Origin: Chloroherpetonaceae bacterium
GTDB lineage: Bacteria; Bacteroidota; Chlorobiia; Chlorobiales; Thermochlorobacteraceae
Length of the DNA: 64,000 bases
NCBI GenBank assembly: GCA_025055975.1
Contig: JANWWM010000028.1
Coordinates: 36,219-100,218 of the forward strand
Direction: 5' to 3'
This document shows positions 6,603-56,985 of this stretch, in pieces; position 1 is the stretch's first letter, and each line of letters begins with the position of its first letter. The translations under genes were made by a program, and so were the position numbers. Below the pieces are notes generated by a model, which searched no databases, was not told where the DNA came from, and saw nothing but the letters and a program-made list of their open reading frames with translations.

Positions 6603-7906
6603 TGCAAGACTTCCTCCTTTTCGGGTTTAGGTTGAGCGAATTCGTCGTATTGTTCGCGCCTGATGTTCGCGCCAAGCGCGCGCAGTTTTTGTTCGATTTT
6701 TTCGTAGCCCCGATCCAAGTGATAGACGCGCAGGACTTCCGTCGTGCCGCTGGCGACAAGCCCCGCAAGAATAAGACTCGCCGACGCGCGCAGGTCGGTC
6801 GACATCACCTTCGCGCCCGACAGTTTTTGCTCGCCTTTGACGATGGCGGAATTTCCCTTGACGACGATGTTCGCGCCCAAGCGATTGAGTTCGGGCACGT
6901 GTTTGAAGCGGTCGGCGTAGATGTGGTCGGTGATTTTGCTCGTGCCGACGGCTTGGGTCATCAAAGCCGTCCATTGCGCTTGCATATCGGTCGGAAACTT
7001 CGGGAAGGGTTTGGCTTCCACGTTGGTGGCTTCGAGCTTGCGGGGCGATTTGAGCGAGACGACGTTTTCGGCGTATTTGATTTCGCAACCCGCCTGCTCG
7101 AACTTTTTGAGCACGGCTTTGAAGTGCGCGGGACTTACGTCGGTGAGCGTTACCTCGCCTTTGGTGATGGCGGCGGCGCACAGCAGCGTGCCCGCTTCGA
7201 TGCGGTCGGAGATGTTGGTTTCGCGCGCGGCGTAAAGTTCCTCGACGCCTTCGATTTCGAGTTCCGTCGTGCCGATGCCCGAAATTTTCGCGCCCATTTT
7301 CATCAGCATGTCGGCGAGCGCGGTGATTTCGGGTTCGAGCGCGGCGTTTTTGATTTTGGTCGTGCCTTTCGCCAAGACCGCCGCCATCAAGGCGTTGCCC
7401 GTCGCGCCAACGGACGAAATGGGGAACTCGATTTTCGCGCCGACGAGGCGTTTGCGTTTCGCCTTCGCCACGATGTAGCCGTCCTCAATCTCGACGCTCG
7501 CGCCCAAGGCTTGCATCGCTTTGATGTGCAAGTCGACGGGACGCGGTCCCCACGCGCAACCGCCAGGAAGCGAGACGCGCGCCCTTCCAATGCGCCCAAG
7601 CAACGGACCCAACACATACACCGACGCGCGCATCTGTTTGACGAGTTCGTAAGGCGCTTCGGGGTGCGAGATGTTCTCGGCGGAAATCGTGAGCGAGTTT
7701 TTTTCAAACTCGACTCTCGCGCCAATGATGCGCAGCAAATTGGAGAGCGTGTGCACGTCGCGCAAATCGGGCACGCGCGAAATGACGGTCTTGCCCGACG
7801 CGGGCAACAGCGCCGCCGCCATCAACGCCAACGCCGCGTTCTTTGAACCCGAAACCGCAACCGTGCCCGACAGTTGTCTGCCGCCTTTGATGACGAGTTT
7901 GTCCAT
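6599..7906 (-). CDS. murA: UDP-N-acetylglucosamine 1-carboxyvinyltransferase
   Basis: Start taken at [26 protein letters not shown] (internal Met of ORF 6599..7948). The active-site loop [18 protein letters not shown] contains the catalytic Cys. Confidence 0.95.
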
Positions 7907-7977
7907 TGAGAAAGGTCGTCTGAAAGTTCGCGTCGGAGCGATTCGCAAGCGCGATGAGCGAAGTTAATTCCGAGCGC

Positions 7978-8820
7978 TCAAAAATCAATTAAAACGCCCA
8001 CGCTTTGCTCAAAAGCGTAGCGACCGAGATACATTCCGCGAAAGTCCAATCCGCCGTAGTGATTGAACGCTATGCGCATGCCGCGCTTGCCGACGGCGTT
8101 GAGCTTGATTCCCATCTGCACGTTGGTCGCGCCGCCGTAGCCTTGCGTTCTGCCAAGCGCGCGCCGCCAAATCGGAACGAGCCTGAAATCGATCGCCGCG
8201 AAAGGCGCGAGCGCAGACAGCGGAAAGCGAGCGCAATAAAACTCCACCCCCGCTTGATAACTCGACGCGGCAATGCCTCGCGGAATCACGTTGAAGAGAA
8301 CCTCGCATCCCGCGTAAGCGCGACCCCATTCGCTCGATAGCGCCAGCGTCAGCGCGACGAACTCTCGGCTATACGTGAAAGGTTCGAGACCCTCGATCCA
8401 ACCGCCGCCCGCGAATCGACCATCGACCAGATGCGCCGATATGTGCGACAGCCTGAAACGCCCCGCCACGTCAAGCCACGAGGCGAGCGGCGCGCGATAA
8501 CTGACGTTCATTCCGAAAAGGTAATCGACGGCGTTGACGGGAAACTTGAAATTCCATTCGCGGCGCAATTCGGAAAACGTGCCGAAATCCACGCCCACTC
8601 CGAAGCGTCGCCGCTCCAACGAGAGTTGGAGCAAGTCGAGGCTAACGCCGATGTCGAGCGAAAGTTCGTCGTTGTTTTGGTTCGGCAGAATGGCGATGCG
8701 CGGCTCTTTCGCGTCGGCAAGAAGCGGCGCGAAAAGCGGGCGATTGGGTTCAAACGAAAGTTGCGCGTAGCCGAAAGAGCAAAACAGCCAAACGACGACG
8801 GAAAGAAAGGTTCGTTTCAT
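7978..8820 (-). CDS. outer-membrane beta-barrel protein, DUF1207-like
   Basis: 280 aa. Signal peptide MKRTFLSVVVWLFCSFGYAQ. The FAPLLADAKEPRI motif resembles my recollection of DUF1207. Alternating beta-strand pattern with a terminal aromatic residue (..VGVLIDF). Confidence 0.6.
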   Translation of the reverse strand: MKRTFLSVVVWLFCSFGYAQLSFEPNRPLFAPLLADAKEPRIAILPNQNNDELSLDIGVSLDLLQLSLERRRFGVGVDFGTFSELRREWNFKFPVNAVDYLFGMNVSYRAPLASWLDVAGRFRLSHISAHLVDGRFAGGGWIEGLEPFTYSREFVALTLALSSEWGRAYAGCEVLFNVIPRGIAASSYQAGVEFYCARFPLSALAPFAAIDFRLVPIWRRALGRTQGYGGATNVQMGIKLNAVGKRGMRIAFNHYGGLDFRGMYLGRYAFEQSVGVLIDF

Positions 8821-9022: not shown

Positions 9023-12000
9023 TCACGGGCTCGATTGCCCATCTGACGCGGCGGGCGAGGCAGGCTCGCTGACCGTGATTTTGACGGTTTTGGAATCCTT
9101 CGCGCCTGATTTGTCGGTAACCGTGAACGTGACGTCGTAACTGCCCGCTTGCTTTTTGGTGGGCGTCCATTGAAACTGATTGCTCTTGAATGTCGCGCCT
9201 TTGGGCAAATTCGACGCGGCGATTTTCAGTTTGCCCTCGTCTTCTTTGTCATCGTCGCTTGCGCTTACCGCGAAAGAAATCGGCTGTTCGACCGTCGCGC
9301 TCACGTCGGCAAGGTCGGCAAGTTTGGGCGGGCGATTGACGTGCTTGACGGTGATGACGATTTGCGTTTCGTCGGAAAGCGGCGTTCCATCGATGCCCGA
9401 ATCCGTTACTTTGGCGTTGAGGACATACTTGCCCGCTTGTTCGTAGCTCGGAGTCCAAACGAGTTTGTTGCCTTCGAGCTTTGCGCCGTCGGGCAAGTTG
9501 GCGATGCTGAACGCGAGTTTGCCCTCGTCTTCTTTGTCGGGGTCGGTGGCTTTCAGCTCAATCGTGAGCGGTTCGTTTTCGCCGACGGTTTGCGCGGCAA
9601 CCTTTTCAATCTTGGGCTTGCGGTTCAACGGCTTGACGACGATGGGCACGACGAGTTTGTCGCTCAACGCTTTTTCGGGATTGGGTTGGAGCGTGGTTGT
9701 TCCCGCAAGTCCTCTGTCCGTAACGGTGAACTCGAGTTGATACTCGCCCGATTGCTCGTGCGTGGGGGTCCAAACGAACGTTTGGTTCGATGGCGTAAAG
9801 ACCGCGCCTTTGGGCAATTCGCCCGCTTTGTAAACGAGTTTGCCCTCGTCTTCTTTGTCGGGGTCAATCGCTTTGAGCGTGAAGGAAAGTTTTTGCGTTT
9901 CTCTCGCTTCGGACACGTTCACTGGCTCGAATTTTGGCGGGCGATTCGTATTGGCGACGGCAATCGTTGCGGATTTCGAATCTTTCAGCCCATCGGGGTC
10001 TTTGATGGTGAAGGTGAGTTTATAGACTCCGTTTTGGTCGAAGTCGGGAGTCCAAGAAAAGTTCGCGCCATCGAAGGTTGCGCCTTTGGGCAAGCCATCG
10101 ACGGAGATGGTGAGCTTGCCCGCGTCTTCGCGGTCAGGGTCGGAGCCGCTCACGCTAAACGTGATGGGCGAATTTTCTTCGCCTGTCTTGCTTGCGACTG
10201 AATCCATCTTGGGCGGACGATTGACGTGAATGACCGAAATCGGAACTTCCTTGACGTCGGAGAGCGGAGAGCCGTCGATGCCCGTATCGACCACTCTAAA
10301 CGAGACGACATAATTTCCCGATTGCTCGTAGGTCGGTTTCCAAGAAAACGTTTGCGCGAGCGTGTCGTAGGTTGCGCCTTCGGGAAGATTGCTCGCCGAG
10401 AACGAGAGTTTGCCCGCGTCTTCGCGATCGGGGTCGCTCGCGGGAGTCTTGAAGATCAGAACCTCGTTTTCCTTGATGGTTTTAGGCTCAATAGCGGCGA
10501 AGGCGGGCGGACGATTGGTTTGCTTGACTTCGATGAAGACCGTCATCGTGTCGTCGAGAACGAAATCGGGCTTTGGAACGAGCTTGTAATCAAGCCCTTG
10601 GTCTTCGACGACGAACTCGGCGACGTAGTTGCCCGCTTGTTCAAAGGTTGGAGTCCAAGAGAACATGCGCGTAGAGCCGTCGAAGGTCGCCCCTTGCGGA
10701 AGTTTCACGGCTTTGAAGACAAGCTTGCCCTCGTCTTCCGCGTCGGGATCGCTGGCGGAAAGCGCGAAGGTTTGCGCTTTGTTTTCATAGAAGGTTTGCG
10801 GTTGGATTCGGACAAATTCGGGGTTGAGGTTCACGTTATCGACGCGGATTTTCATTTCTTTGGAATCCGTGAGCGCGCCTTTGCCGTCGTTTGCGCCGTC
10901 GCTATCGGAGTCTTTGACCGTGAAGGTTACGACATAATCGCCCGCCTGCGCAAAATCGGGAGTCCAAGAGAACTTTCGCGTTTCGGGGTCGAAGGTCGCG
11001 CCGCGCGGCAAATTGGTTGCGGCGTAGGTGAGTTTGCCCGCGTCTTCAACGTCGGGGTCAGAGCCTTCGGGCAGAACATAGACGAGCAGCGAATCTTCCA
11101 GCGTCACTTGCGCGGGCGGTTGCGGCAAACTTGGCGCGCGGTTGATGTGTTTGACCTCAATCGTGAAGGCTTCGGTTCGAGAAAGCATGTCGCGCGTTTG
11201 CTCTTGAATCGTCGCAATGAAGGAATAAATCCCCGATTGCTCAAAGGTCGGAGTCCAAGAAAGCGTTTGCGACGCTTGGTCGTAGCGAAAGCCTGCGGGA
11301 AATTTGCCGCTTTGTTCGGCGAGCGCAATCACGACGGAACTGCTGTCGGGGTCGTTGCCCTCAATCTTGTATGTCAGCGGTTCGTTTTCGTTGACAACGT
11401 GGCTTTTGAGGTTGGTGAAAACGGGGGTCATATCGTAATTGAACACTTGGAATCCCCTATCCGAACTGCCCGCGTAGATGGCGTGCCCCGAAAACGCGAC
11501 GTGCGTGATTTCCGCGCCGTTGCCGACGAACTTGTCGAGCGGTTCCACATTCAATTTTCCAAATAGCCTCGTGTCATAGACCGCAAGACCCGAACGCCCC
11601 GTCGCCACGACGACCATATTCGGATTCAAGGGATAGAGCGCCACGCCGATGACGAGAGGCAAGTTGTAGTTCGCCTGAAAGACGCGCGTCGGCATCGTGA
11701 TGGTTTTGACATTGACGACCTCGAAGCCGCCTTCGCCGTTGCCGAGATAGAGCATTCCGTCGCGTTCAATCACGTAGCGGCATTTGGTCGAGCCTGCGTA
11801 ACCGCCGATGTATCTGGGTTGCGTCGGACGGCTGACATCGAGAATTTTCACGCCGCCTTCTCGGTCGGCGACGTAGAGTTTCTTGTTGGAGAACGAAACG
11901 CCCCAAGCGTAGTTCCAATACAGAAGCGAGCTGGTCGTCGCCACGCGCGTCGGAACGGCGGGGTTTTCCAAACTCCAAACTTCAACGCCCGCTTTGCCCG

Positions 12001-12469
12001 TGGCGACGAACAGGTAATCGCCGTTCTCGTCCAAGCACAAATCCCACGCTTCGCCCGAAGCCGTTTTGACGCTCGCGTTTGAGACGGGCGCGGCGGGATT
12101 AGAGATGTTGACGATGTTGATGCCGTTGACGTTGTCGGAGATGTAGAGGTAGTTGCCTTTGCGCGCGATGCCGCTCGTCGGAATGCCAAGGTCGCGCATT
12201 GAACCCGCCAAGACGGGCGTGAACGGATCGCTGATGTCGAAGACTTGCAAGCCATTGACGTTGGTGGCGACATAAAGGTATTTGCCGCTCACGAAGAGCG
12301 ACGCGATTCCGTCGCTCGCAAAAATCGGGTCGCCAACGGGTTCGAGCTTGTTGTAAATGATTTTGGGCGCGCCTTCCTCTTCTTGCGCGAAAGCTCCCGC
12401 GCTTGCGAGGACGCACAGCAACGGCGCAAGAAGGCGAAAAGCGAGAGAGGGCAAAGTCGTTGTGGTCAT
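9023..12469 (-). CDS. large secreted protein: signal peptide, seven LVIVD-type beta-propeller blades, eight cadherin-like/putative-Ig repeats
   Basis: 1148 aa uninterrupted. Seven blades of the form YLYVATNVNGLQVFDISDPFTP, YLYISDNVNGINIVNISNPAAP and so on. Eight units follow with the pattern EN..L.F...A.DPD.EDEGKL.F.A..LP.GA.FD.....F.WTP...Q.G.Y...F.V.D. I did not recognise a C-terminal sorting domain. Confidence 0.9.
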   Translation of the reverse strand: MTTTTLPSLAFRLLAPLLCVLASAGAFAQEEEGAPKIIYNKLEPVGDPIFASDGIASLFVSGKYLYVATNVNGLQVFDISDPFTPVLAGSMRDLGIPTSGIARKGNYLYISDNVNGINIVNISNPAAPVSNASVKTASGEAWDLCLDENGDYLFVATGKAGVEVWSLENPAVPTRVATTSSLLYWNYAWGVSFSNKKLYVADREGGVKILDVSRPTQPRYIGGYAGSTKCRYVIERDGMLYLGNGEGGFEVVNVKTITMPTRVFQANYNLPLVIGVALYPLNPNMVVVATGRSGLAVYDTRLFGKLNVEPLDKFVGNGAEITHVAFSGHAIYAGSSDRGFQVFNYDMTPVFTNLKSHVVNENEPLTYKIEGNDPDSSSVVIALAEQSGKFPAGFRYDQASQTLSWTPTFEQSGIYSFIATIQEQTRDMLSRTEAFTIEVKHINRAPSLPQPPAQVTLEDSLLVYVLPEGSDPDVEDAGKLTYAATNLPRGATFDPETRKFSWTPDFAQAGDYVVTFTVKDSDSDGANDGKGALTDSKEMKIRVDNVNLNPEFVRIQPQTFYENKAQTFALSASDPDAEDEGKLVFKAVKLPQGATFDGSTRMFSWTPTFEQAGNYVAEFVVEDQGLDYKLVPKPDFVLDDTMTVFIEVKQTNRPPAFAAIEPKTIKENEVLIFKTPASDPDREDAGKLSFSASNLPEGATYDTLAQTFSWKPTYEQSGNYVVSFRVVDTGIDGSPLSDVKEVPISVIHVNRPPKMDSVASKTGEENSPITFSVSGSDPDREDAGKLTISVDGLPKGATFDGANFSWTPDFDQNGVYKLTFTIKDPDGLKDSKSATIAVANTNRPPKFEPVNVSEARETQKLSFTLKAIDPDKEDEGKLVYKAGELPKGAVFTPSNQTFVWTPTHEQSGEYQLEFTVTDRGLAGTTTLQPNPEKALSDKLVVPIVVKPLNRKPKIEKVAAQTVGENEPLTIELKATDPDKEDEGKLAFSIANLPDGAKLEGNKLVWTPSYEQAGKYVLNAKVTDSGIDGTPLSDETQIVITVKHVNRPPKLADLADVSATVEQPISFAVSASDDDKEDEGKLKIAASNLPKGATFKSNQFQWTPTKKQAGSYDVTFTVTDKSGAKDSKTVKITVSEPASPAASDGQSSP
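9026..11419 (-). repeat. eight tandem ~95-105-aa (about 290-315 nt) cadherin-like coding repeats inside the 9023..12469 gene
   Basis: Repeat boundaries read from the translated protein (aa 351-1148). Each unit ends in N(R/L)(P/A/K)P(K/S/A)(F/L/M/I). Copies are diverged at the DNA level. Confidence 0.8.
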
Positions 12470-28888: not shown

Positions 28889-29896
28889 TTAGGTCGGCTT
28901 TTGCGCGATGAGCAACGCGGCGAAAATCACGTTCAACACATACAAGCCGTTGTTGACGACGAGGTAACGCAGATAGGATTTGTGCGTTTTGACGTCGCTC
29001 TTGCCAACGACGTTTCGCAGCCCCGTCTTTTGAACCGCGTCTTCCAACGCGCTCGCGCCGTGTTCGGGGTCGAGATAAAGCATCGCTTGCGTGGCGAGAA
29101 TCGCCATGAACGAAAAGAGCGAGAAGTAAAACATCGCGCCAAACTCCCACTTCCACATCAAATAAACGAACGTGCCAAAGGCGACGTCAATGAGCGAGAA
29201 GGAGACGAGGTAAGTGCCTCTCACGCCAATCATCACGGGCAGAGATTTCAGTCCTTTGGCTTTGTCGCCTTCCGCCGACTTGAAATCGTTGAGGAAAATC
29301 AGCCCGATGGCGATGCAAGCGTTGATGGCTCCCATCCAAACGACTTCGGGGCGCAAATCGGCGTAGAGCAAATTGCCCGCGATCCAAGTGATGAAACTGT
29401 AACTAATTCCCACGGCGGGCGCGGAGAGGAGCACGTTGTTTTTGAGTTTGAGCGGCGGCGCGGAGTAGATGTAACTGACGACCAAGCCAAAAACGGTAAT
29501 CAAAAAGAGAAAGCCGCCGCGCCATTCGCCCAAACGATAGGCGAAGAACGCGCCCACGATCAACGCCATCGCGCCAACGGTGAGCCAATTCCACAGCGCT
29601 TCTTTCTCCGAAAGCCTGCCCGAAGGAATCGGGCGCGAGGGTTCATTGACGCGGTCGAGGTCTCGATCGTAGTAATCATTGACGGATTGCGAGAAGCCCG
29701 TTCCGAGCGGTCCAAAGAGAAGCATCAGCAGCGCAAACTGTCCGATGTGCTCGATCGAAAACTCCATTCGCCCCGAAGCGATTGCGCCACACACGATGCC
29801 TTGCAGAACGCCAACCCAAGTGATGGGGTCTAAAAGTTCGAGATGCGCTTTGAGTTTCTGCATCGGCGAGAGCGATGCCTTCGGCGTGTCGGTCAT
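28889..29896 (-). CDS. (bacterio)chlorophyll synthase, BchG/ChlG/BchK family (UbiA-type prenyltransferase)
   Basis: 335 aa with about 9 TM helices. Signature SQSVNDYYDRDLDRVNEPSRPIPSGRLS. The specific paralog cannot be assigned by eye. Confidence 0.9.
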   Translation of the reverse strand: MTDTPKASLSPMQKLKAHLELLDPITWVGVLQGIVCGAIASGRMEFSIEHIGQFALLMLLFGPLGTGFSQSVNDYYDRDLDRVNEPSRPIPSGRLSEKEALWNWLTVGAMALIVGAFFAYRLGEWRGGFLFLITVFGLVVSYIYSAPPLKLKNNVLLSAPAVGISYSFITWIAGNLLYADLRPEVVWMGAINACIAIGLIFLNDFKSAEGDKAKGLKSLPVMIGVRGTYLVSFSLIDVAFGTFVYLMWKWEFGAMFYFSLFSFMAILATQAMLYLDPEHGASALEDAVQKTGLRNVVGKSDVKTHKSYLRYLVVNNGLYVLNVIFAALLIAQKPT

Positions 29897-37138: not shown

Positions 37139-37205
37139 CAAACGACGAGAACAAGGCTTGTCTCCCAAGTCCTTGCCTCTCGGTCTCAACTTCGTAGCGG
37201 TAACA

Positions 37206-38171
37206 ATGAAGTCCAAAGCCGTCGTGTTCTACGCGCCCGAACAGTTGGAACTGCGCGACGTGGAGTTGCGCGAACTAGGTCCGGACGACGTGTTGATAGA
37301 AACCTATTGGACGAGCATCAGCGCGGGAACGGAGAAGATGCTCTTTCAGGGCAAGCTGCCGCCGATGCAGATGACTTCGTATCCCGTGATTCCGGGCTAC
37401 GAGACGGTCGGGAAAATCATTCAGAAGGGCGAGAACGTGCCCGAATCCGCGCTTGGGTCTTTCGTGTATGTGTCGGGTTCGCTCGGCTATGTTGGCGTGA
37501 ATGCCGCTTGGGGCGGCGCGTCGGCTTACATCGTCTCGCCTTATCACAAGACGATTCGCGTCGATGCGATGACCGACCTTTCGCTTGGGCTTGCCTTGCC
37601 GCTGGGCGCGACGGCGCTGCACGCCGTTGACCTCGCCGAAGTCTCGCGCAAAAAAGTTCTCGTGTTGGGACAAGGGGCGGTCGGGTTGCTCGTCGCCGAA
37701 ATCGCCAAGCATTTCGGCGCGGAACTCGTCGTCGCCACCGACCTCAACGCCGAGCGTTTGGCGCATTCGAGCGCGAACATTCGCGTCAAAGTCGATGAAC
37801 ATAACCTCGTCGACGCGCTCGCGGGAATGCTCTGCGACGTGGCGATTGATTGCACAGGCTCGATGAAAGCCATCGAGCACAGTTTCGCGCATCTGGCGAT
37901 GAACGCCAAAGTGATTTTGGCGGGCTTCTATCAGCGCATCGATTTGCCGTATCACGTCGCGTTTATGAAGGAACTGACGTTCGTCGCCGCAAAGCAATGG
38001 CGGCTCGGCGACTTGGAGCGCGTGCGCGACCTCATCGCGCGCGACAAAATCAACGCGAAAAAAATTTTCACGCATCGCAGCTCCGCTTACAACGGCATCC
38101 ACGAAGCCTATCGCGTCGCGTTCAACGACGCCAGTTGCTTGAAAATGGTCTTGAACTGGAAAGAAGATTAG
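37206..38171 (+). CDS. bchC: bacteriochlorophyllide a dehydrogenase (3-hydroxyethyl bacteriochlorophyllide dehydrogenase), MDR/Zn-ADH fold
   Basis: Start at MKSKAVVFYAPEQLELRDVEL, an internal ATG of ORF 37158..38171. Blocks ISAGTEKMLFQG, PVIPGYETVGKI and the Rossmann motif VLVLGQGAVGLLVAEIAKHFGA. Position between bchF and bchX. Confidence 0.85.
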   Translation: MKSKAVVFYAPEQLELRDVELRELGPDDVLIETYWTSISAGTEKMLFQGKLPPMQMTSYPVIPGYETVGKIIQKGENVPESALGSFVYVSGSLGYVGVNAAWGGASAYIVSPYHKTIRVDAMTDLSLGLALPLGATALHAVDLAEVSRKKVLVLGQGAVGLLVAEIAKHFGAELVVATDLNAERLAHSSANIRVKVDEHNLVDALAGMLCDVAIDCTGSMKAIEHSFAHLAMNAKVILAGFYQRIDLPYHVAFMKELTFVAAKQWRLGDLERVRDLIARDKINAKKIFTHRSSAYNGIHEAYRVAFNDASCLKMVLNWKED

Positions 38172-38173
38172 AT

Positions 38174-39499
38174 ATGCCTCGCACCATCGCAATCTACGGC
38201 AAGGGCGGCATCGGAAAGAGTTTCATCACGACGAACATGACCGCCACGTTCGCCTCTATGGGCAAGCGCGTTCTGCAACTTGGCTGCGACCCCAAACACG
38301 ACAGCACCACGACGCTCTTCGGCGGTTTGTCTCTTCCGACCGTTACGGAAGTCTTCGGCGAAAAGACCGCCAAAAACGAGAAGGTTCAGGTTGAAGACAT
38401 CGTGTTCAAGAAAACCTTTCCCGACATTTCGGGCGAGATTTTCGGCATTGAGCTTGGCGGACCCGAAGTCGGTCGCGGGTGCGGCGGCAGGGGCATCATT
38501 TCGGGCTTCGATGTGCTCGAGAAGTTGGGTCTCTTCAAGTGGGATTTGGACGTCGTGTTGATGGATTTTCTCGGCGACGTCGTCTGCGGCGGATTCGCCA
38601 CGCCGCTCGCGCGCTCGTTGTGCGAAGAAGTTATCCTCGTCGTCTCCAACGACCGCCAATCGATTTTCGCGGCGAACAACATCTGCGTCGCCAACAACTA
38701 CTTCAAAACCGTCGGCGGCAGTTCGCGCCTCTTGGGCTTGATTGTCAACCGCGACGACGGCAGCGGCATCGCGGAACGCTACGCCGAAGCGGCTGGCATC
38801 AACGTCCTTATGACGCTCCCTTACGACTCCGAAGCGCGCGACAAAGCCGATAGTTTCGACTTAGCCATTCGCTTGCCAAACATAAAGGCGAAATTCGACG
38901 CGCTTTGCTCGAAAATTTGGAACCGCGAAATCCCCTACTGCGAAGCGCGAGGACTGAACTACGACGAATTTATGCGGCTTTTCGGCGAGGTCGATTCGCG
39001 CAAGCCCGAACCCGCTCGTCTTTCCGACCTTCGCCTCGAAAAAAATCTCGACCTCGATGGCAACGCCATCTTGAAGGAAAAGTTGGAAAAAGAAGCCTTC
39101 ATCGCCAATGGCTTTCAAAAGCCGATTCAAATCGCCTTGCCGAGCGAGACCAACGCGCTGGGCGACAAAGTCGCCATCGGCTCAAACGCCGATTCCCTTC
39201 CCGAACACGACGAGTTCATCAAAAAAGAACGCAAACCCTTGATGGCGGCAAAACGCTACGGCGAGATTCGCAAAGCCGAAAAAAACGCGCCGAATCGCGT
39301 CAAGACCGACCACGAGCGTCTGCTCGACTGCATCGCCAAACTGCCTCGCATCGAGCGCGAACTCATTACGCTCTCCGAAATCAAAAAGAAATCGCCCGAT
39401 GAAATCGCCATCGAAAAACAATTGGACAGAGCGGAAGTTTTGGAGCGTTTGGCTTCGGCGCGCGCGCGTTTGAAGGAACTCTTCTTTCAACCCGAATGA
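38174..39499 (+). CDS. bchX: chlorophyllide a reductase iron-protein subunit X (NifH/BchL-like ATPase) with an unusual ~165-aa C-terminal extension
   Basis: Start at MPRTIAIYGKGGIGKS (ATG 38174, in frame with ORF 37850..39499). P-loop at aa 9-16. Cluster-ligand Cys residues in GRGCGGRGI and DVVCGGFATP. The NifH-like core ends near aa 270; the frame continues uninterrupted to aa 441. Confidence 0.85.
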   Translation: MPRTIAIYGKGGIGKSFITTNMTATFASMGKRVLQLGCDPKHDSTTTLFGGLSLPTVTEVFGEKTAKNEKVQVEDIVFKKTFPDISGEIFGIELGGPEVGRGCGGRGIISGFDVLEKLGLFKWDLDVVLMDFLGDVVCGGFATPLARSLCEEVILVVSNDRQSIFAANNICVANNYFKTVGGSSRLLGLIVNRDDGSGIAERYAEAAGINVLMTLPYDSEARDKADSFDLAIRLPNIKAKFDALCSKIWNREIPYCEARGLNYDEFMRLFGEVDSRKPEPARLSDLRLEKNLDLDGNAILKEKLEKEAFIANGFQKPIQIALPSETNALGDKVAIGSNADSLPEHDEFIKKERKPLMAAKRYGEIRKAEKNAPNRVKTDHERLLDCIAKLPRIERELITLSEIKKKSPDEIAIEKQLDRAEVLERLASARARLKELFFQPE

Positions 39500-52447: not shown

Positions 52448-53875
52448 CTAAATGTTGATGGCTTCGCCGTAAGCCGCCGCCGCCGCTTCCTTGATGGCTT
52501 CCGAGAAGGTCGGATGCGCGTGAATGGTTTTGTGAATCCAATCCGCCGTCGCTTCCAATTTTTTGGCGACGCAGAGTTCGGCGATCATCTCGGTCGCTTC
52601 GTGCCCGACGATGTGCGCGCCCAAAAGTTCGCCCGTCTTTTTGTCGAAGACGAGCTTGACCATTCCCGCCGTTTCGCCCGCCGCCGTCGCTTTGCCCGAC
52701 GCTTTGAAGGGAAAACGACCGACGAGAACGTCGTAACCTTGTTCTTTGGCGGCTTTTTCCGTCAAGCCCACGTGCGCGACGGAAGGTTGGCAATAGGTGC
52801 ACGCGGGAATGTCGAGCGGATTGATGGGCTTTGTCGGCAAGCCCGCGATCGTCTCGACGCAATTGATGCCCTCGACCGAAGCTTTGTGCGCCAACAGCAT
52901 TCCGCCCGCGACGTCGCCAATGGCGTAAACGCCCTCGACATTCGTGCGCCCAAATCCATCGACTTTGATGAAACCTTTTTCCGTCTGCACGCCAACCTTT
53001 TCCAAGCCGAGATTTTCGATGTTGCCCGTCAAGCCAACGGCGACGAGGCAGTAATCCGAAACGAGTTCTTTTCTTTCGCCTTTGAAATCGGTCAGGACGG
53101 TTCTGACGCTTTCGCCTTCGACCGAAGCCGATTCCACCTTCGCGCTCGTCAAGATCTCGATGCCTTGTTTTTTGTATTCGCGTTCAAGCCAAGTGGAAAT
53201 CTCTTCGTCTTCGTTGGGCAAGATGCGCGGCATATACTCGACGAGCGTAACTTTCGCGCCAACGGCGTTGAAGAAATACGCGAACTCGACCCCAATCGCG
53301 CCCGCGCCAATGATGGCGATGGTTTTCGGCTTTTCGGGCAGAATCATCGCTTCGTAGCTCGTGATGATGCGCTTGCGATCGATGGGCACGTTTGGAAGCG
53401 ATTTGGCTTTTGCGCCCGTCGCCAGAATCACGTGCAACGAGGTGATTTTTTCGACTTTGCCGTCGGATTCAATCTCGATCTCATGCGCCGAAGCCAATTT
53501 GCCGTAGCCTTTCTTGACGGTGATTTTGTTTTTCTTCATCAAGTAATCCACGCCTTTTGCCATCTGCGCCGCCACGTCTCGACTGCGTTTGATGATGGCG
53601 GGAAAATCGATCTCAAAGCTTGAAATTTTGACTCCAAACTCGCTCGCGTGATGGAGCGCGTGAATCAGCTCGGCGTTTTTGAGAAGCGATTTGGTTGGAA
53701 TGCACCCCCAATTCAAGCACACGCCTCCGAGCGTTGGCTCTTTTTCGACGATGCACGTTTTGTAACCAAGTTGCGACGAGCGAATCGCCGTTTCGTAACC
53801 GCCAGGTCCAGAGCCGATGACGGTTATGTCGAAGTCGTAGTCGTGGGCGAATTTTTTTGCGGCGCGATTGGACAT
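52448..53875 (-). CDS. lpdA: dihydrolipoyl dehydrogenase
   Basis: Start at MSNRAAKKFAHDYDFDITVIGSGPGGY (53875). Redox disulfide GGVCLNWGCIPTK. C-terminal HAHPTFSE. Confidence 0.93.
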   Translation of the reverse strand: MSNRAAKKFAHDYDFDITVIGSGPGGYETAIRSSQLGYKTCIVEKEPTLGGVCLNWGCIPTKSLLKNAELIHALHHASEFGVKISSFEIDFPAIIKRSRDVAAQMAKGVDYLMKKNKITVKKGYGKLASAHEIEIESDGKVEKITSLHVILATGAKAKSLPNVPIDRKRIITSYEAMILPEKPKTIAIIGAGAIGVEFAYFFNAVGAKVTLVEYMPRILPNEDEEISTWLEREYKKQGIEILTSAKVESASVEGESVRTVLTDFKGERKELVSDYCLVAVGLTGNIENLGLEKVGVQTEKGFIKVDGFGRTNVEGVYAIGDVAGGMLLAHKASVEGINCVETIAGLPTKPINPLDIPACTYCQPSVAHVGLTEKAAKEQGYDVLVGRFPFKASGKATAAGETAGMVKLVFDKKTGELLGAHIVGHEATEMIAELCVAKKLEATADWIHKTIHAHPTFSEAIKEAAAAAYGEAINI

Positions 53876-54093: not shown

Positions 54094-54900
54094 ATGCCAA
54101 AAGTTGAAATCAACGGGCAAACCTACGACGCGATTGTCGATGAATCTCTCCTTGCCGTCGCTCGCAAACACAAGGCTCACATCGGCTACGCCTGCGGCGG
54201 AAACGGCTTGTGCCAAACGTGCGAAGTCATCGTGGAAAGCGGAATGGAGGCGCTCTCGCCGATGAACGATGTCGAGAAGGCGTGGCTGACGGCGGAAAAG
54301 CAAAAGAACGGTCATCGTCTCGCATGCCAATGCACGTTCGTCGCCGACAAGCCCGTCAAGCTCATTACGCGCGCCGAAAGAGCGCGTCAGGTCTTCAATC
54401 GCGCCTTCAAAGAACAACCCAAAGAGCCGTCGAAACACCCGCAAGGTTACGTGGGCGAGTTTTTCACTTGGCTCGGAATGGAAACGCTCTCGCATCTTTC
54501 CGCCGTGCCGTTTGTAACGGTCAACGTGATTCAGCGCGTCGCCGAGGGCAAACTGACGCTTCAAGCGGTGTCCGACACCATCAACGCCGCCAACGAGCGT
54601 TTTCCCGAAATCAATCAAATCGTAACCGAGATAACGGGGAGCATTCCCAAGGCTGTGGGCGATTTGGGCAAAGGGCTTGAACCCGTGATGAACAGCGCGG
54701 GCGAATTGTTCAAGAACATTGGCAACGCCGTCTCATCGACCGATTTGAACAAAACGCTCGAACCCGTCGTCAATGGCGTCTCGAGCGTCGTCAAAGGCGT
54801 AACCGACGCGGTGTCGAAGGTCATCGGCGGCGCGACGCCAAGCGCGTCTTCGGCGCAACCGGACGTTACGCCCGTCAAGGTTGAGGTCAAGAAAGGCTAA
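54094..54900 (+). CDS. [2Fe-2S] ferredoxin-domain protein with long amphipathic C-terminal region; resembles chlorosome envelope proteins CsmI/CsmJ/CsmX (tentative)
   Basis: 268 aa. The N-terminal ~95 aa contain YACGGNGLCQTCEV...LACQC (Cys-x5-Cys-x2-Cys...Cys). The C-terminal ~170 aa are Gly/Val/Ser/Lys-rich amphipathic segments (GELFKNIGNAVSS, LEPVVNGVSSVVKGVTDAVSKVIGG). High confidence as a CDS and for the Fe-S domain; the Csm assignment is about 0.5. Confidence 0.8.
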   Translation: MPKVEINGQTYDAIVDESLLAVARKHKAHIGYACGGNGLCQTCEVIVESGMEALSPMNDVEKAWLTAEKQKNGHRLACQCTFVADKPVKLITRAERARQVFNRAFKEQPKEPSKHPQGYVGEFFTWLGMETLSHLSAVPFVTVNVIQRVAEGKLTLQAVSDTINAANERFPEINQIVTEITGSIPKAVGDLGKGLEPVMNSAGELFKNIGNAVSSTDLNKTLEPVVNGVSSVVKGVTDAVSKVIGGATPSASSAQPDVTPVKVEVKKG

Positions 54901-54932
54901 TTCTCGCAAGCAGTTACAAGCAGTATCGCAGC

Positions 54933-55634
54933 ATGCAGTTGGAAGTATCCATCAAACGCTTCAATCCCGAAATCGATGGCGCGCCCCATTGGGAAACATA
55001 CAAGGTCGAGGCGGACCCAATGGAGCGCGTGCTCGATGTGTTGAACAAAATCAAGTGGGAACAAGACGGCACGCTCACCTACCGCAAGTCGTGCGCGCAC
55101 GGCGTTTGCGGCAGCGACGCGATGATGATCAACGGCGAAAATCGCCTCGCATGCGTTACGCTCGTCAAGGACTTGAAAACGACGAAGCTCAAAATCGAGC
55201 CCGTTCCTGGCGCGTCGGTCATCAAAGATCTCGTCATCGATATGACGCGGTTTTGGAAGAGCTACGAGACGATCATGCCGTATTTGTGCAACGACGATCC
55301 GCCGCCCGAAACGGAGCGATATCAAAGCGCGCAAGATCAGGAACTCATCGAGGAATCGACGCGATGCATTCTTTGCGGCGCGTGCACGTTCTCGTGCCCC
55401 TCGACGTGGAGCGACGAAGAGTATCTTGGTCCCGCCGCGCTTTTGAAAGCCTACCGATTCATCTTCGACAGTCGCGATCAAGCCGCCGACCAACGCCTGC
55501 GCATCATCGACAACAACAAGGGTTTGTGGAAGTGCTACACGATTTTCAACTGCGTGCAAGCCTGCCCGAAGGAAATCGACATCACGAAGCACATTTCCGC
55601 GTTGAAGCGCAAGGTCGTCAGCGAGCGCTATTGA
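54933..55634 (+). CDS. sdhB: succinate dehydrogenase/fumarate reductase iron-sulfur subunit
   Basis: 233 aa. Three Cys clusters: SCAHGVCGSDAMMINGENRLAC, CILCGACTFSCP, CYTIFNCVQACP. Confidence 0.92.
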   Translation: MQLEVSIKRFNPEIDGAPHWETYKVEADPMERVLDVLNKIKWEQDGTLTYRKSCAHGVCGSDAMMINGENRLACVTLVKDLKTTKLKIEPVPGASVIKDLVIDMTRFWKSYETIMPYLCNDDPPPETERYQSAQDQELIEESTRCILCGACTFSCPSTWSDEEYLGPAALLKAYRFIFDSRDQAADQRLRIIDNNKGLWKCYTIFNCVQACPKEIDITKHISALKRKVVSERY

Positions 55635-55848
55635 ACGATTGAACGGCTTTCAACCCCGCGCCATCGCCTTCAACCCGACGGCGCGACGTTTTCGCAAAGG
55701 CTATCAAGGTTTTCCGCCTTTGGTAGTCTTTTTCATTCGACTCGCTCAACAACGAAAGACGATGGGATATACCAGCGATTTCGGATACCAAGATTTCGAT
55801 GTGGGGCTCGAAACGCTCGAGCGCATCGTGATGAAGAACGAAAAGAAG

Positions 55849-56985
55849 ATGCACATCGACTTGGGCGTTCCGAAAGAAATCACGCCCGACGAAAAGCGCG
55901 TCGCCATCGCGCCATCGGGCGTGAAAATCGTGGCGCAACAAGGACACAGCGTTTTTGTCGAGCGCGACGCGGGCGTTCATTGCAACTTCACCAACGAGGA
56001 ATACATCGAAGCGGGCGCCATCGTCGTCAATTCCGCCGAAGAAGTCTACAAAAAAGCCAACCTCATCGTCAAGGTCGCCGCGCCGTTGCCGTCGGAATAC
56101 GACCTGTTGCAACGCGACCAAACGCTCATTTCCGCGCTGCACTTGGGCAGCGTGCGCACCGATTTGATCGAGACCGTTTTGCGAAAGGGCGTTACCGCGC
56201 TCGCGTTTGAGTTTATCGAGACGCGCGATGGCGAATTGCCCGTGGTGCGCTCGATGAGCGAAATCGCGGGCGCGCTCGCGGTTCAAACCGCCGCGAAGTA
56301 TTTGGAAACGGGCAACGGCGGCAGGGGCATCATCTTGGGCGGATGCGCGGGCGTTCCGCCCGCGACGGTCGTCATTCTCGGCGCGGGCACGGTTGGGCAC
56401 TACGCCACGCAAGCCGCGCTCGGCTTGGGCGCGCATGTGATGGTCATCGACAAAGAACTCAATCGCTTGCGCCGATTCGAGACGATTTTCAATCGCCGCG
56501 TTACGACTGCCATCGCCAACGACCACTACATTTCCAAAGCCGCCAAAGTCGCCGACGTGATGATTGGCGCGATGAACCCGCGCGGCAAAGTGATGCGCCC
56601 CCTCGTCAGCGAAGAAATCGTGATGACGATGCGCAAGGGCGCGGTGATTATCGATGTCTCCATCGATCAAGGCGGTTGCTTCGAGACCAGCCGACGCACG
56701 TCGCACTCCGACCCCATTTTCGTCAAATACGGCGTAACGCACTACTGCGTCCCGAACATGCCGTCCGCCGTGGCTCGCACCGCCTCCTACGCGCTTACCA
56801 ACGCGCTCATTCCGTTCATTCTCAAACTTGGGCAATACGCCAGCCCCTCCGACGCGCTGTGGCGAAGCACGAGCCTCCGAAACGGCGCATATGCTTACAA
56901 AGGCTATCTCACCAAAAAAGTCCTCGCCGACCTTTCGGGTCTCACGTTCCGCGAAATACAGATGCTTCTTGCGACCGACATCTGA
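55849..56985 (+). CDS. ald: alanine dehydrogenase
   Basis: Start at MHIDLGVPKEITPDEKRVA; 55831 is an alternative. The track ORF 55639..56985 carries a non-homologous leader. NAD-binding block VVILGAGTVGHYA. C-terminal HYCVPNMP. Confidence 0.9.
   Translation: MHIDLGVPKEITPDEKRVAIAPSGVKIVAQQGHSVFVERDAGVHCNFTNEEYIEAGAIVVNSAEEVYKKANLIVKVAAPLPSEYDLLQRDQTLISALHLGSVRTDLIETVLRKGVTALAFEFIETRDGELPVVRSMSEIAGALAVQTAAKYLETGNGGRGIILGGCAGVPPATVVILGAGTVGHYATQAALGLGAHVMVIDKELNRLRRFETIFNRRVTTAIANDHYISKAAKVADVMIGAMNPRGKVMRPLVSEEIVMTMRKGAVIIDVSIDQGGCFETSRRTSHSDPIFVKYGVTHYCVPNMPSAVARTASYALTNALIPFILKLGQYASPSDALWRSTSLRNGAYAYKGYLTKKVLADLSGLTFREIQMLLATDI

Follow-up and report, generated by a model that had tools for sequence, protein, structure and literature searches.

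Chlorosome iron-sulfur proteins are thought to help restore chlorosome energy transfer after exposure to oxygen; to our knowledge, their redox partners have never been identified. CsmI, CsmJ, and CsmX were reportedly first described by Vassilieva and coworkers in Biochemistry in 2001 and 2002, and Li, Frigaard, and Bryant are said to have later worked on the function of CsmI and CsmJ in Chlorobaculum tepidum. The C. tepidum chlorosome envelope has been reported to contain CsmJ, CsmX, and CsmI as proteins of 21.8, 24.0, and 25.9 kDa, respectively (PMC3175400), and a redox function has been proposed for CsmI and CsmJ of this organism (Vassilieva et al. 2001, cited in PMC3445912). Here we analyze a gene on the forward strand of a 64,000-nucleotide stretch (hereafter, the window) of contig JANWWM010000028.1 from a Chloroherpetonaceae bacterium. 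An earlier note made from the letters of the window had proposed that this gene, at positions 54094..54900, encodes a CsmI/J/X-like 2Fe-2S protein and lies directly upstream of an orphan sdhB. Based on the comparisons described below, we consider the host to be a Thermochlorobacter-like member of the Chloroherpetonaceae and the gene product to be, in all probability, one of the [2Fe-2S] proteins of the chlorosome envelope, related to CsmI, CsmJ, and CsmX.

The ferredoxin domain and its relatives

The csmJ/csmX-like gene occupies exactly the open reading frame (ORF) named in the earlier note; it starts with ATG, has 268 codons for a protein of 268 residues, and shows a G+C fraction at third codon positions of 0.71, which is typical for genes of the window. 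The N-terminal 2Fe-2S ferredoxin domain claimed for its product is equally clear. Fer2 is the single significant Pfam domain of the protein (residues 6-81, E 1.9e-12), and the top NCBIfam match is fdx_isc, the iron-sulfur cluster (ISC)-type ferredoxin. The motifs CGGNGLCQTC and LACQC supply four cysteines with the ligand spacing C-x5-C-x2-C-x34-C, namely, Cys34 (54193-54195), Cys40 (54211-54213), Cys43 (54220-54222), and Cys78 (54325-54327), none of which varies in either of two homologue alignments (16 and 25 sequences). In an AlphaFold model computed from the 25-sequence alignment (mean predicted local distance difference test score [pLDDT], 75.8), the ferredoxin fold covers residues 1-92, where pLDDT values exceed 90 (93-98 apart from the cluster loop). 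Foldseek comparison with the PDB matched the first ~100 residues to Escherichia coli Fdx (1I7H), FdxB of P. putida (3AH7), putidaredoxin, and adrenodoxin-like folds, and returned zero PDB matches for the tail. We therefore assign residues 1-92 (54094..54369, forward strand) to an adrenodoxin/ISC-type [2Fe-2S] domain on the basis of the invariant cysteines, the model, the Foldseek matches, and the fdx_isc match. The soluble ferredoxins of this type share both fold and ligand spacing with residues 1-100 of the window protein, but they are without a helical tail, are only 21-28% identical to it, and score far lower against the family profile.

With that profile, built for the family of the window protein, we made an exhaustive search of 1.84 billion representative proteins. 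The top-ranked matches were proteins having both the ferredoxin domain and the region that follows it (the middle region, discussed below). The next block consisted of Chlorobiaceae proteins that matched profile positions 3-101 only, that is, the Fer2 domain, at 125-139 bits, whereas ordinary small ferredoxins reached ~89 bits or less. This block comprises a Prosthecochloris protein named "chlorosome envelope protein J" by JGI (P0124), a protein of a Chlorobiaceae bacterium (P0129), and a protein of Chlorobium sp. N1 (P0136). A search seeded with the block returned 318 proteins, many of them labeled chlorosome envelope protein I or X. In the reverse direction, a hidden Markov model (HMM) of 98 Chlorobiaceae sequences assigned 124.8 bits to the window protein (E 2e-34, Z=1e6), with an alignment that continues into the middle region up to residue 165. 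Judged by these profile scores, the ferredoxin domain is closer to those of Chlorobiaceae CsmI, CsmJ, and CsmX than to any other ferredoxin in the database outside its own family. The kinship proposed in the earlier note is thus supported in both search directions, and the nearest proteins outside the family, for which the note had considered non-chlorosome ferredoxin fusions as the adverse outcome, are the Chlorobiaceae I/J/X proteins.

Chlorobiaceae CsmI, CsmJ, and CsmX resemble the window protein in overall design. They have the same adrenodoxin-type domain, with the signature HIGYxCGGxGxCQxC...RLAC, and after it 120-170 residues of helical tail that lack transmembrane segments; their reciprocal profile scores with the window family span 120-139 bits. 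They differ from the window protein in that the latter is longer (268 residues), contains a 27-residue tandem repeat, and is encoded by one copy at its locus instead of a tandem pair.

To place the window protein among these relatives, we used a neighbor-joining tree built from the first 112 residues, in which the clades of Chlorobiaceae I, J, and X proteins form one group (88% bootstrap) that excludes both Chloroherpetonaceae clades. Within the Chlorobiaceae group, genes adjacent to sdhB and ald (the alanine dehydrogenase gene) cluster with the JGI-named CsmJ P0124 (100% bootstrap), and the genes upstream of them cluster with JGI-named "X" proteins (93%). From this topology we infer that the window protein may be a co-orthologue of the Chlorobiaceae I/J/X trio, the alternative being that tandem copies were homogenized by gene conversion within each family. 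Support for clade A (35%) and for clades A plus B (23%) is too low to date the tandem pair relative to the split between Chlorobiaceae and Chloroherpetonaceae. If the co-orthology holds, the Chloroherpetonaceae, including aerobic Thermochlorobacter-like phototrophs, would carry co-orthologues of CsmI, CsmJ, and CsmX with a strongly diverged, repeat-bearing tail.

Gene order and the sdhB neighbor

Gene order provides a second line of comparison and, of the new evidence, the strongest part. In all Chloroherpetonaceae loci that we fetched (L001-L011), the window-type gene is followed by sdhB and then by ald. In the complete genome of Chloroherpeton thalassium (L009), the order is a gene for a 263-residue Fer2+CsmB protein, the Fer2 gene P0041, sdhB, ald, an amino-oxidase gene on the minus strand, and a sigma-70 gene. 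Prosthecochloris sp. GSB1 has the same string, with Fer2 proteins of 219 and 228 residues followed by an sdhB-like gene, ald, the amino-oxidase gene (again on the minus strand), and the sigma-70 gene. A second Prosthecochloris contig repeats this order, and its sdhB-adjacent gene is the JGI-named CsmJ P0124. Since the sdhB/ald-adjacent genes of Chlorobiaceae cluster with P0124 in the tree, the window gene is the positional counterpart of csmJ. As far as these alignments of gene order go, it sits in the csmJ slot of a [csmX-like]-[csmJ-like]-sdhB-ald-(crtH-like) string that is conserved across the Chlorobiales, and its place in a cluster common to Chloroherpeton and Prosthecochloris lends support to its Csm identity that is independent of the domain comparison.

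The string is not uniform in its sdhB member. In a Chlorobium phaeobacteroides-like contig (L012), the gene for P0313, the "chlorosome envelope protein X" of C. phaeobacteroides, is followed by a Fer2 gene, ald, and the amino-oxidase gene, without sdhB. The presence of sdhB between csmJ and ald in Prosthecochloris (L014, L017) and its absence from that place in L012 point to lineage-specific loss or relocation. The C. tepidum genes crtH (CT0649), csmJ (CT0651), and csmX (CT0652) presumably follow the sdhB-less arrangement.

On the other side of the window gene, the place held by the csmX-position paralogue in Chloroherpeton and Chlorobiaceae is occupied by a divergent, dihydrolipoamide dehydrogenase-like gene (lpd; 52448..53875, minus strand), identified from the gene call and the Pfam matches Pyr_redox_2 and Pyr_redox_dim in the identical contig L001. 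Only L001 and L002, both identical contigs, have it next to the window-type gene. The paralogue found in that place in C. thalassium (L009, 7117..7908 of CP001100, directly upstream of the sdhB-adjacent gene) belongs to clade B, the second Chloroherpetonaceae paralogue (258-263 residues, including P0042-P0044), which has the same architecture as the window protein and a homologous tail (hhalign E 1.4e-16), and which carries a precomputed Pfam annotation as PF27499 "CsmB" in Chloroherpeton. The third gene of the window's string, ald, lies at 55762..56985 (forward strand) and is recognized by the Pfam AlaDh_PNT_N/C domains; its TIGR00518 score of 363 bits is below the cutoff of 391.85. Alanine dehydrogenase is encoded after sdhB in L001-L011, L014, and L017, and in one of these loci (L007, from the metagenome-assembled genome [MAG] ES-bin-17) ~1.2 kb has been inserted between sdhB and ald, at 6921..8195.

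The sdhB gene that the earlier note placed 32 nt downstream is complete and lies at 54933..55634 on the forward strand. It encodes a succinate dehydrogenase iron-sulfur subunit of 233 residues (NF004616, 328 bits against a cutoff of 228; TIGR00384, 261 bits against 88) in which the motifs for the 2Fe-2S, 4Fe-4S, and 3Fe-4S clusters are all found. Its description as an orphan is true within the window, where its neighbors are the csmJ-like gene and ald and no SdhA-like protein was detected among the large ORFs submitted to NCBIfam or Pfam. Neither sdhA nor sdhC nor sdhD adjoins sdhB in L001-L011, L014, L017, or L018. The closest solved relatives are SdhB of M. smegmatis Sdh2 (6LUM_B, 253 bits) and SdhB of E. 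coli (1NEK_B, 209 bits), with alignments covering residues 1-229. Identity is 79-97% across the Chloroherpetonaceae and 63-65% to Prosthecochloris.

Residue 202 of SdhB (55536..55538), which follows the first cysteine of the 3Fe-4S motif, is tyrosine (CYTIFNC), in the place of histidine in the E. coli and mitochondrial proteins (CHSIMNC) and of arginine in M. smegmatis Sdh2 (CRTTFNC). This residue is near the quinone site, and the difference fits a menaquinone-type enzyme.

We consider it likely, from spacing, that the csmJ-like gene and sdhB are cotranscribed, perhaps together with ald. In each of the 12 loci measured, 21-52 nt separate the csmJ-position gene from sdhB, while identity of the Csm-like protein falls to 36%. 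The gap is 40 nt in L018, a related lineage (SdhB 77-84% identical) in which the pair is kept and ald is no longer downstream. In the window, the spacer (54901..54932, forward strand) has no terminator-like hairpin according to a terminator scan. In scans for promoter and terminator consensus sequences, the number of sites did not exceed shuffle expectation and none fell in the gap; the sigma-70 consensus is not informative for Chlorobi-type promoters. This last point leaves room for another explanation, in which the adjacency has no functional meaning and sdhB is transcribed separately from an internal promoter that would lie within the csmJ-like gene, at its 3' end; the retention of csmJ in some Chlorobiaceae that are without sdhB at this place is in keeping with it. 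Nevertheless, a gap that is always 52 nt or less across family-level divergence, the hairpin-free spacer, and the persistence of the pair in L018 in the absence of ald argue against separate transcription, and we regard it as rather unlikely.

The products of the two genes might also act together. One possibility is that the csmJ-like protein and SdhB constitute a dedicated redox module, in which SdhB is not, or not only, a complex II subunit and wires the chlorosome [2Fe-2S] proteins to the quinone pool (menaquinone/chlorobiumquinone) or to succinate/fumarate. The constancy of the closely spaced pair from Thermochlorobacter to Prosthecochloris, its survival in L018, and the absence of sdhA, sdhC, and sdhD beside it can be cited for such a module, as can the fact that sdhB is well conserved within the Chloroherpetonaceae although the fumarate reductase of the reductive tricarboxylic acid (rTCA) type has been reported lost in the photoheterotrophic Chlorobiales clade (10.1101/2022.02.08.479544). 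Still, the protein is a textbook complex II subunit by its score to M. smegmatis Sdh2 SdhB and its full set of cluster motifs, and an aerobic heterotroph needs one. Dispersed sdh genes are moreover known in other bacteria, e.g., cyanobacteria, and some Chlorobiaceae keep csmX-csmJ-ald without sdhB, so the Csm proteins are independent of it. Taking both sides into account, we find a dedicated module improbable, and its more specific form, in which a stand-alone three-cluster SdhB links the chlorosome-envelope [2Fe-2S] proteins to the quinone pool or succinate/fumarate and the module is ancestral to the Chlorobiales but lost in some Chlorobiaceae, a little more improbable again. By default, we would read SdhB as a regular complex II subunit of the menaquinone type, with its partner genes elsewhere, and the linkage as an ancient operon arrangement.

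The conserved pairing of a csmJ-like gene with sdhB across the order appears to be undescribed; the literature that we searched makes no mention of csmJ together with sdhB. The occurrence of the csmJ-position gene within ~50 nt of sdhB from Chloroherpeton to Prosthecochloris suggests a possible redox partner and yields a hypothesis that would be cheap to test, through cotranscription and protein interaction, for which the cultured C. thalassium is suited. Were the redox module real, the chlorosome redox switch would gain a defined metabolic input; were the pairing only inherited gene order, the finding would amount to annotating correctly, in a further lineage, a protein family that is already known.

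The middle region and the tail

The earlier note had described the C-terminal ~170 residues as low-complexity, amphipathic, and free of transmembrane helices. The amphipathic character and the lack of a transmembrane segment stand, but residues ~93-170 prove to be a conserved helical region, and only residues ~171-268 are repetitive. The middle region (residues 93-170; 54370..54603, forward strand) is delimited by conservation and pLDDT and is predicted to contain helices at 93-107 and 118-150 and the start of a helix at 156-214. Phe105, His134, Pro139, and Glu168 are invariant in the homologue alignments. Model confidence declines along the region, with pLDDT values of 92-93 up to residue 130, ~77-85 at residues 131-160, and ~70 at residues 161-170. 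Homologues of Chloroflexus, Viridilinea, and Chlorohelix also have the middle region, and its alignment with the tails of Chlorobiaceae CsmI, CsmJ, and CsmX is collinear but weak (hhalign P 9e-4).

His134 (54493..54495) lies within the helix GxETxxHxxxxPxxxxNxxxR and is invariant in 16 of 16 Chloroherpetonaceae homologues as well as present in many Chloroflexota relatives, and its equivalent is missing from the Chlorobiaceae tails inspected. CsmA ligates bacteriochlorophyll a via a histidine; by comparison, and as pure speculation, His134 might be a pigment or metal ligand.

The tail proper (residues 171-268; 54604..54897, forward strand) is V/G/S-rich and amphipathic by composition, hydrophobic moment, and repeat content, and it is predicted to be helical, with low pLDDT. 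The two helices that AlphaFold places here, 156-214 and 218-247, are long and of low confidence. Residues 96-268 contain 13.9% V, 8.7% G, 8.1% A, 8.1% S, and 7.5% K; the helical hydrophobic moment reaches 0.58 in the tail, and the maximum 19-residue Kyte-Doolittle mean of the window protein, 1.1, gives no transmembrane segment. A tandem repeat of 27 residues spans residues 190-216 (54661-54741, DLGKGLEPVMNSAGELFKNIGNAVSST) and 217-243 (54742-54822, DLNKTLEPVVNGVSSVVKGVTDAVSKV) on the forward strand, with 13 of 27 positions identical between the units. Thermochlorobacter-like proteins of 267-270 residues have both units; one unit is found in the 240-residue homologues, among them P0027, P0030, and P0041. 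The protein ends in the short basic motif TPVKVEVKKG. Proteins of the J and I types end similarly (EKVQITAGVSKK, EKVTITVAAPR), with the shared pattern V-x-V/I-x...KK, but those of the X type do not.

Comparison with known Csm sequences produced weak or marginal resemblances. The Pfam family PF11098 (Chlorosome_CsmC) matched the whole protein at 20.9 bits and the tail alone at 22.9 bits (E 9.5e-5; model positions 75-134). A weak match of this kind was seen in 4 of 16 family members, and it was gone in eight shuffles of the tail and in the reversed tail. Aligned by hhalign, the tails of the window clade and of all Chlorobiaceae proteins share 75 collinear columns (P 9.3e-4, probability 22%) with the common motif RAE..R...P....G...MG.E.....P....N..QR...G.L; against the J, X, and I subgroups separately, P was 2e-3, 6e-4, and 2.5e-2, respectively. 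The tail also weakly matches generic amphipathic-repeat families (DUF948/YoxC, ApoLp-III, and V-SNARE_C). Overall, it appears to be an amphipathic helical segment of Csm flavor that has diverged beyond confident assignment.

An alternative is that the protein has nothing to do with chlorosomes and is instead a membrane-peripheral ferredoxin of respiration or the TCA cycle, e.g., one that carries electrons for SdhB/complex II or helps to assemble it, with a tail that binds the cytoplasmic membrane. The conserved sdhB pairing, the generic matches of the tail, the JGI naming of some homologues as YoxC, and the lack of significant similarity to CsmA/E agree with such a role. However, searches in both directions tie the ferredoxin domain specifically to CsmI/J/X, the Chlorobiaceae genes at the same position belong to the JGI CsmJ and CsmX clades, whose members have been reported in the C. 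tepidum envelope (PMC3175400), all source-identifiable homologues come from chlorophototroph lineages, and the CsmC-like signal was not reproduced by shuffles. A non-chlorosomal role thus seems decidedly improbable to us.

We return to the reading of the window gene as one for a chlorosome-envelope protein. Here, the helical region at residues 93-170 would pack on or beside the ferredoxin domain, and the amphipathic repeat tail (residues 171-268) would lie on the chlorosome envelope's lipid monolayer, holding the cluster at the cytoplasmic face. The cluster could then pass electrons to or from quinone-type quenchers that control chlorosome energy transfer, the function that has been proposed for CsmI and CsmJ in C. 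tepidum. Such quenchers would turn off energy transfer under oxidizing conditions, which would be relevant for an aerobic phototroph.

Several observations weigh against this reading and temper our confidence in it. The CsmA/CsmE-like tail foreseen in the earlier note was not confirmed, as Pfam Bac_chlorC (CsmA/E) gave no match for the window protein at E<=1 and an hhalign comparison of the tail alignment with CsmA gave P 0.14 (the CsmA query was validated by Bac_chlorC at 117 bits). However, Bac_chlorC also left all nine Chlorobiaceae proteins of the CsmI/J/X group unmatched when the limit was relaxed to E<=10, and hhalign against CsmA was likewise nonsignificant for Chlorobiaceae; because genuine CsmI/J/X proteins fail both tests, these are without discriminating power and uninformative either way. 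The CsmC match falls below the gathering threshold of 26.3 bits and so denotes resemblance, not membership. Likeness to Chlorobiaceae tails is marginal, with hhalign probabilities of 2-29%, and the distal repeat, aligned as a second HMM domain with "ldleqLledVvegigdavqLv" of the Chlorobiaceae, reaches no more than 3-8 bits. The precomputed PF27499 match belongs to the neighboring Chloroherpeton paralogue and not to the window clade, and the tree does not give one-to-one orthology with CsmJ, CsmI, or CsmX. We infer the chlorosomal location of the window protein and of its Chloroherpetonaceae homologues, cotranscription is argued from spacing, and the conserved sdhB pairing could mean work with respiratory complex II rather than with chlorosomes.

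Homologues and the phototrophic host

Full-length homologues with 82-92% identity occur in MAGs labeled Chloroherpetonaceae, "Candidatus Thermochlorobacteriaceae"/Thermochlorobacter, or Chlorobiales, and some homologues bear the JGI name "ferredoxin/uncharacterized protein YoxC." P0041 of C. thalassium is 36% identical to the window protein over the full length. More distant family members include Fer2 proteins of Chloroflexota, namely, P0067 of Chloroflexus (JGI "chlorosome envelope protein I"), P0058 of Viridilinea, and P0060 of Chlorohelix. In these, the ferredoxin domain and the middle region align over ~150-190 residues (148-156 bits), but the proteins are shorter (~195-208 residues), are without the V/G/S-rich repeat tail, and have another genomic context. 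P0067 is probably the 22-kDa CsmY. Another distant member adjoins bchF and pucC in its own genome. No family member from a non-phototroph was found; wherever the source of a homologue could be established, it was a chlorophototroph lineage, but most metagenomic matches carry no taxon.

A subset of the family has an extra C-terminal DUF4332/helix-hairpin-helix (HHH) domain. It comprises P0294, P0331, P0241, and P0258 (Chlorobiaceae, 346-375 residues) and P0049, P0050, and P0071 (278-320 residues). Members include proteins of Pelodictyon phaeoclathratiforme and C. phaeobacteroides, and several are JGI-named "chlorosome envelope protein I." We know of no description of this architecture. The HHH/DUF4332-bearing distant homologues were considered as candidate non-phototrophs and set aside, as each one with an assignable source belongs either to Chlorobiaceae or to a genome with a second member beside bchF and pucC.

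The genes around the locus indicate, by their sequence matches, that the host is a bacteriochlorophyll-making phototroph, a Thermochlorobacter-like member of the Chloroherpetonaceae. A BchK-like bacteriochlorophyll c synthase gene lies 25 kb away (28889..29896, minus strand); it scores 454.6 bits with NF009058, below the cutoff of 494, and 253 and 239 bits with BchG and ChlG, respectively. The bacteriochlorophyll a pathway genes bchC (37158..38171, forward strand; TIGR01202, 325 bits against a cutoff of 291) and, directly after it, bchX (~38180..39499, forward strand; TIGR02016, 420 bits against 331) are also present. The earlier note had held that a genome lacking chlorosome genes would speak against a Csm protein; the 64-kb window has the BchK-like gene, bchC, and bchX, and a tblastn search of the window and all loci did not find csmA. 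The Chloroherpetonaceae have been reported to possess type-1 reaction centers and chlorosomes (PMC9318685).

Elsewhere in the window, an ORF of 1,148 residues (9023..12469, minus strand) has tandem-95 repeats and partial likeness to a myxosortase-dependent M36 metallopeptidase, and it probably encodes a large secreted or surface protein.

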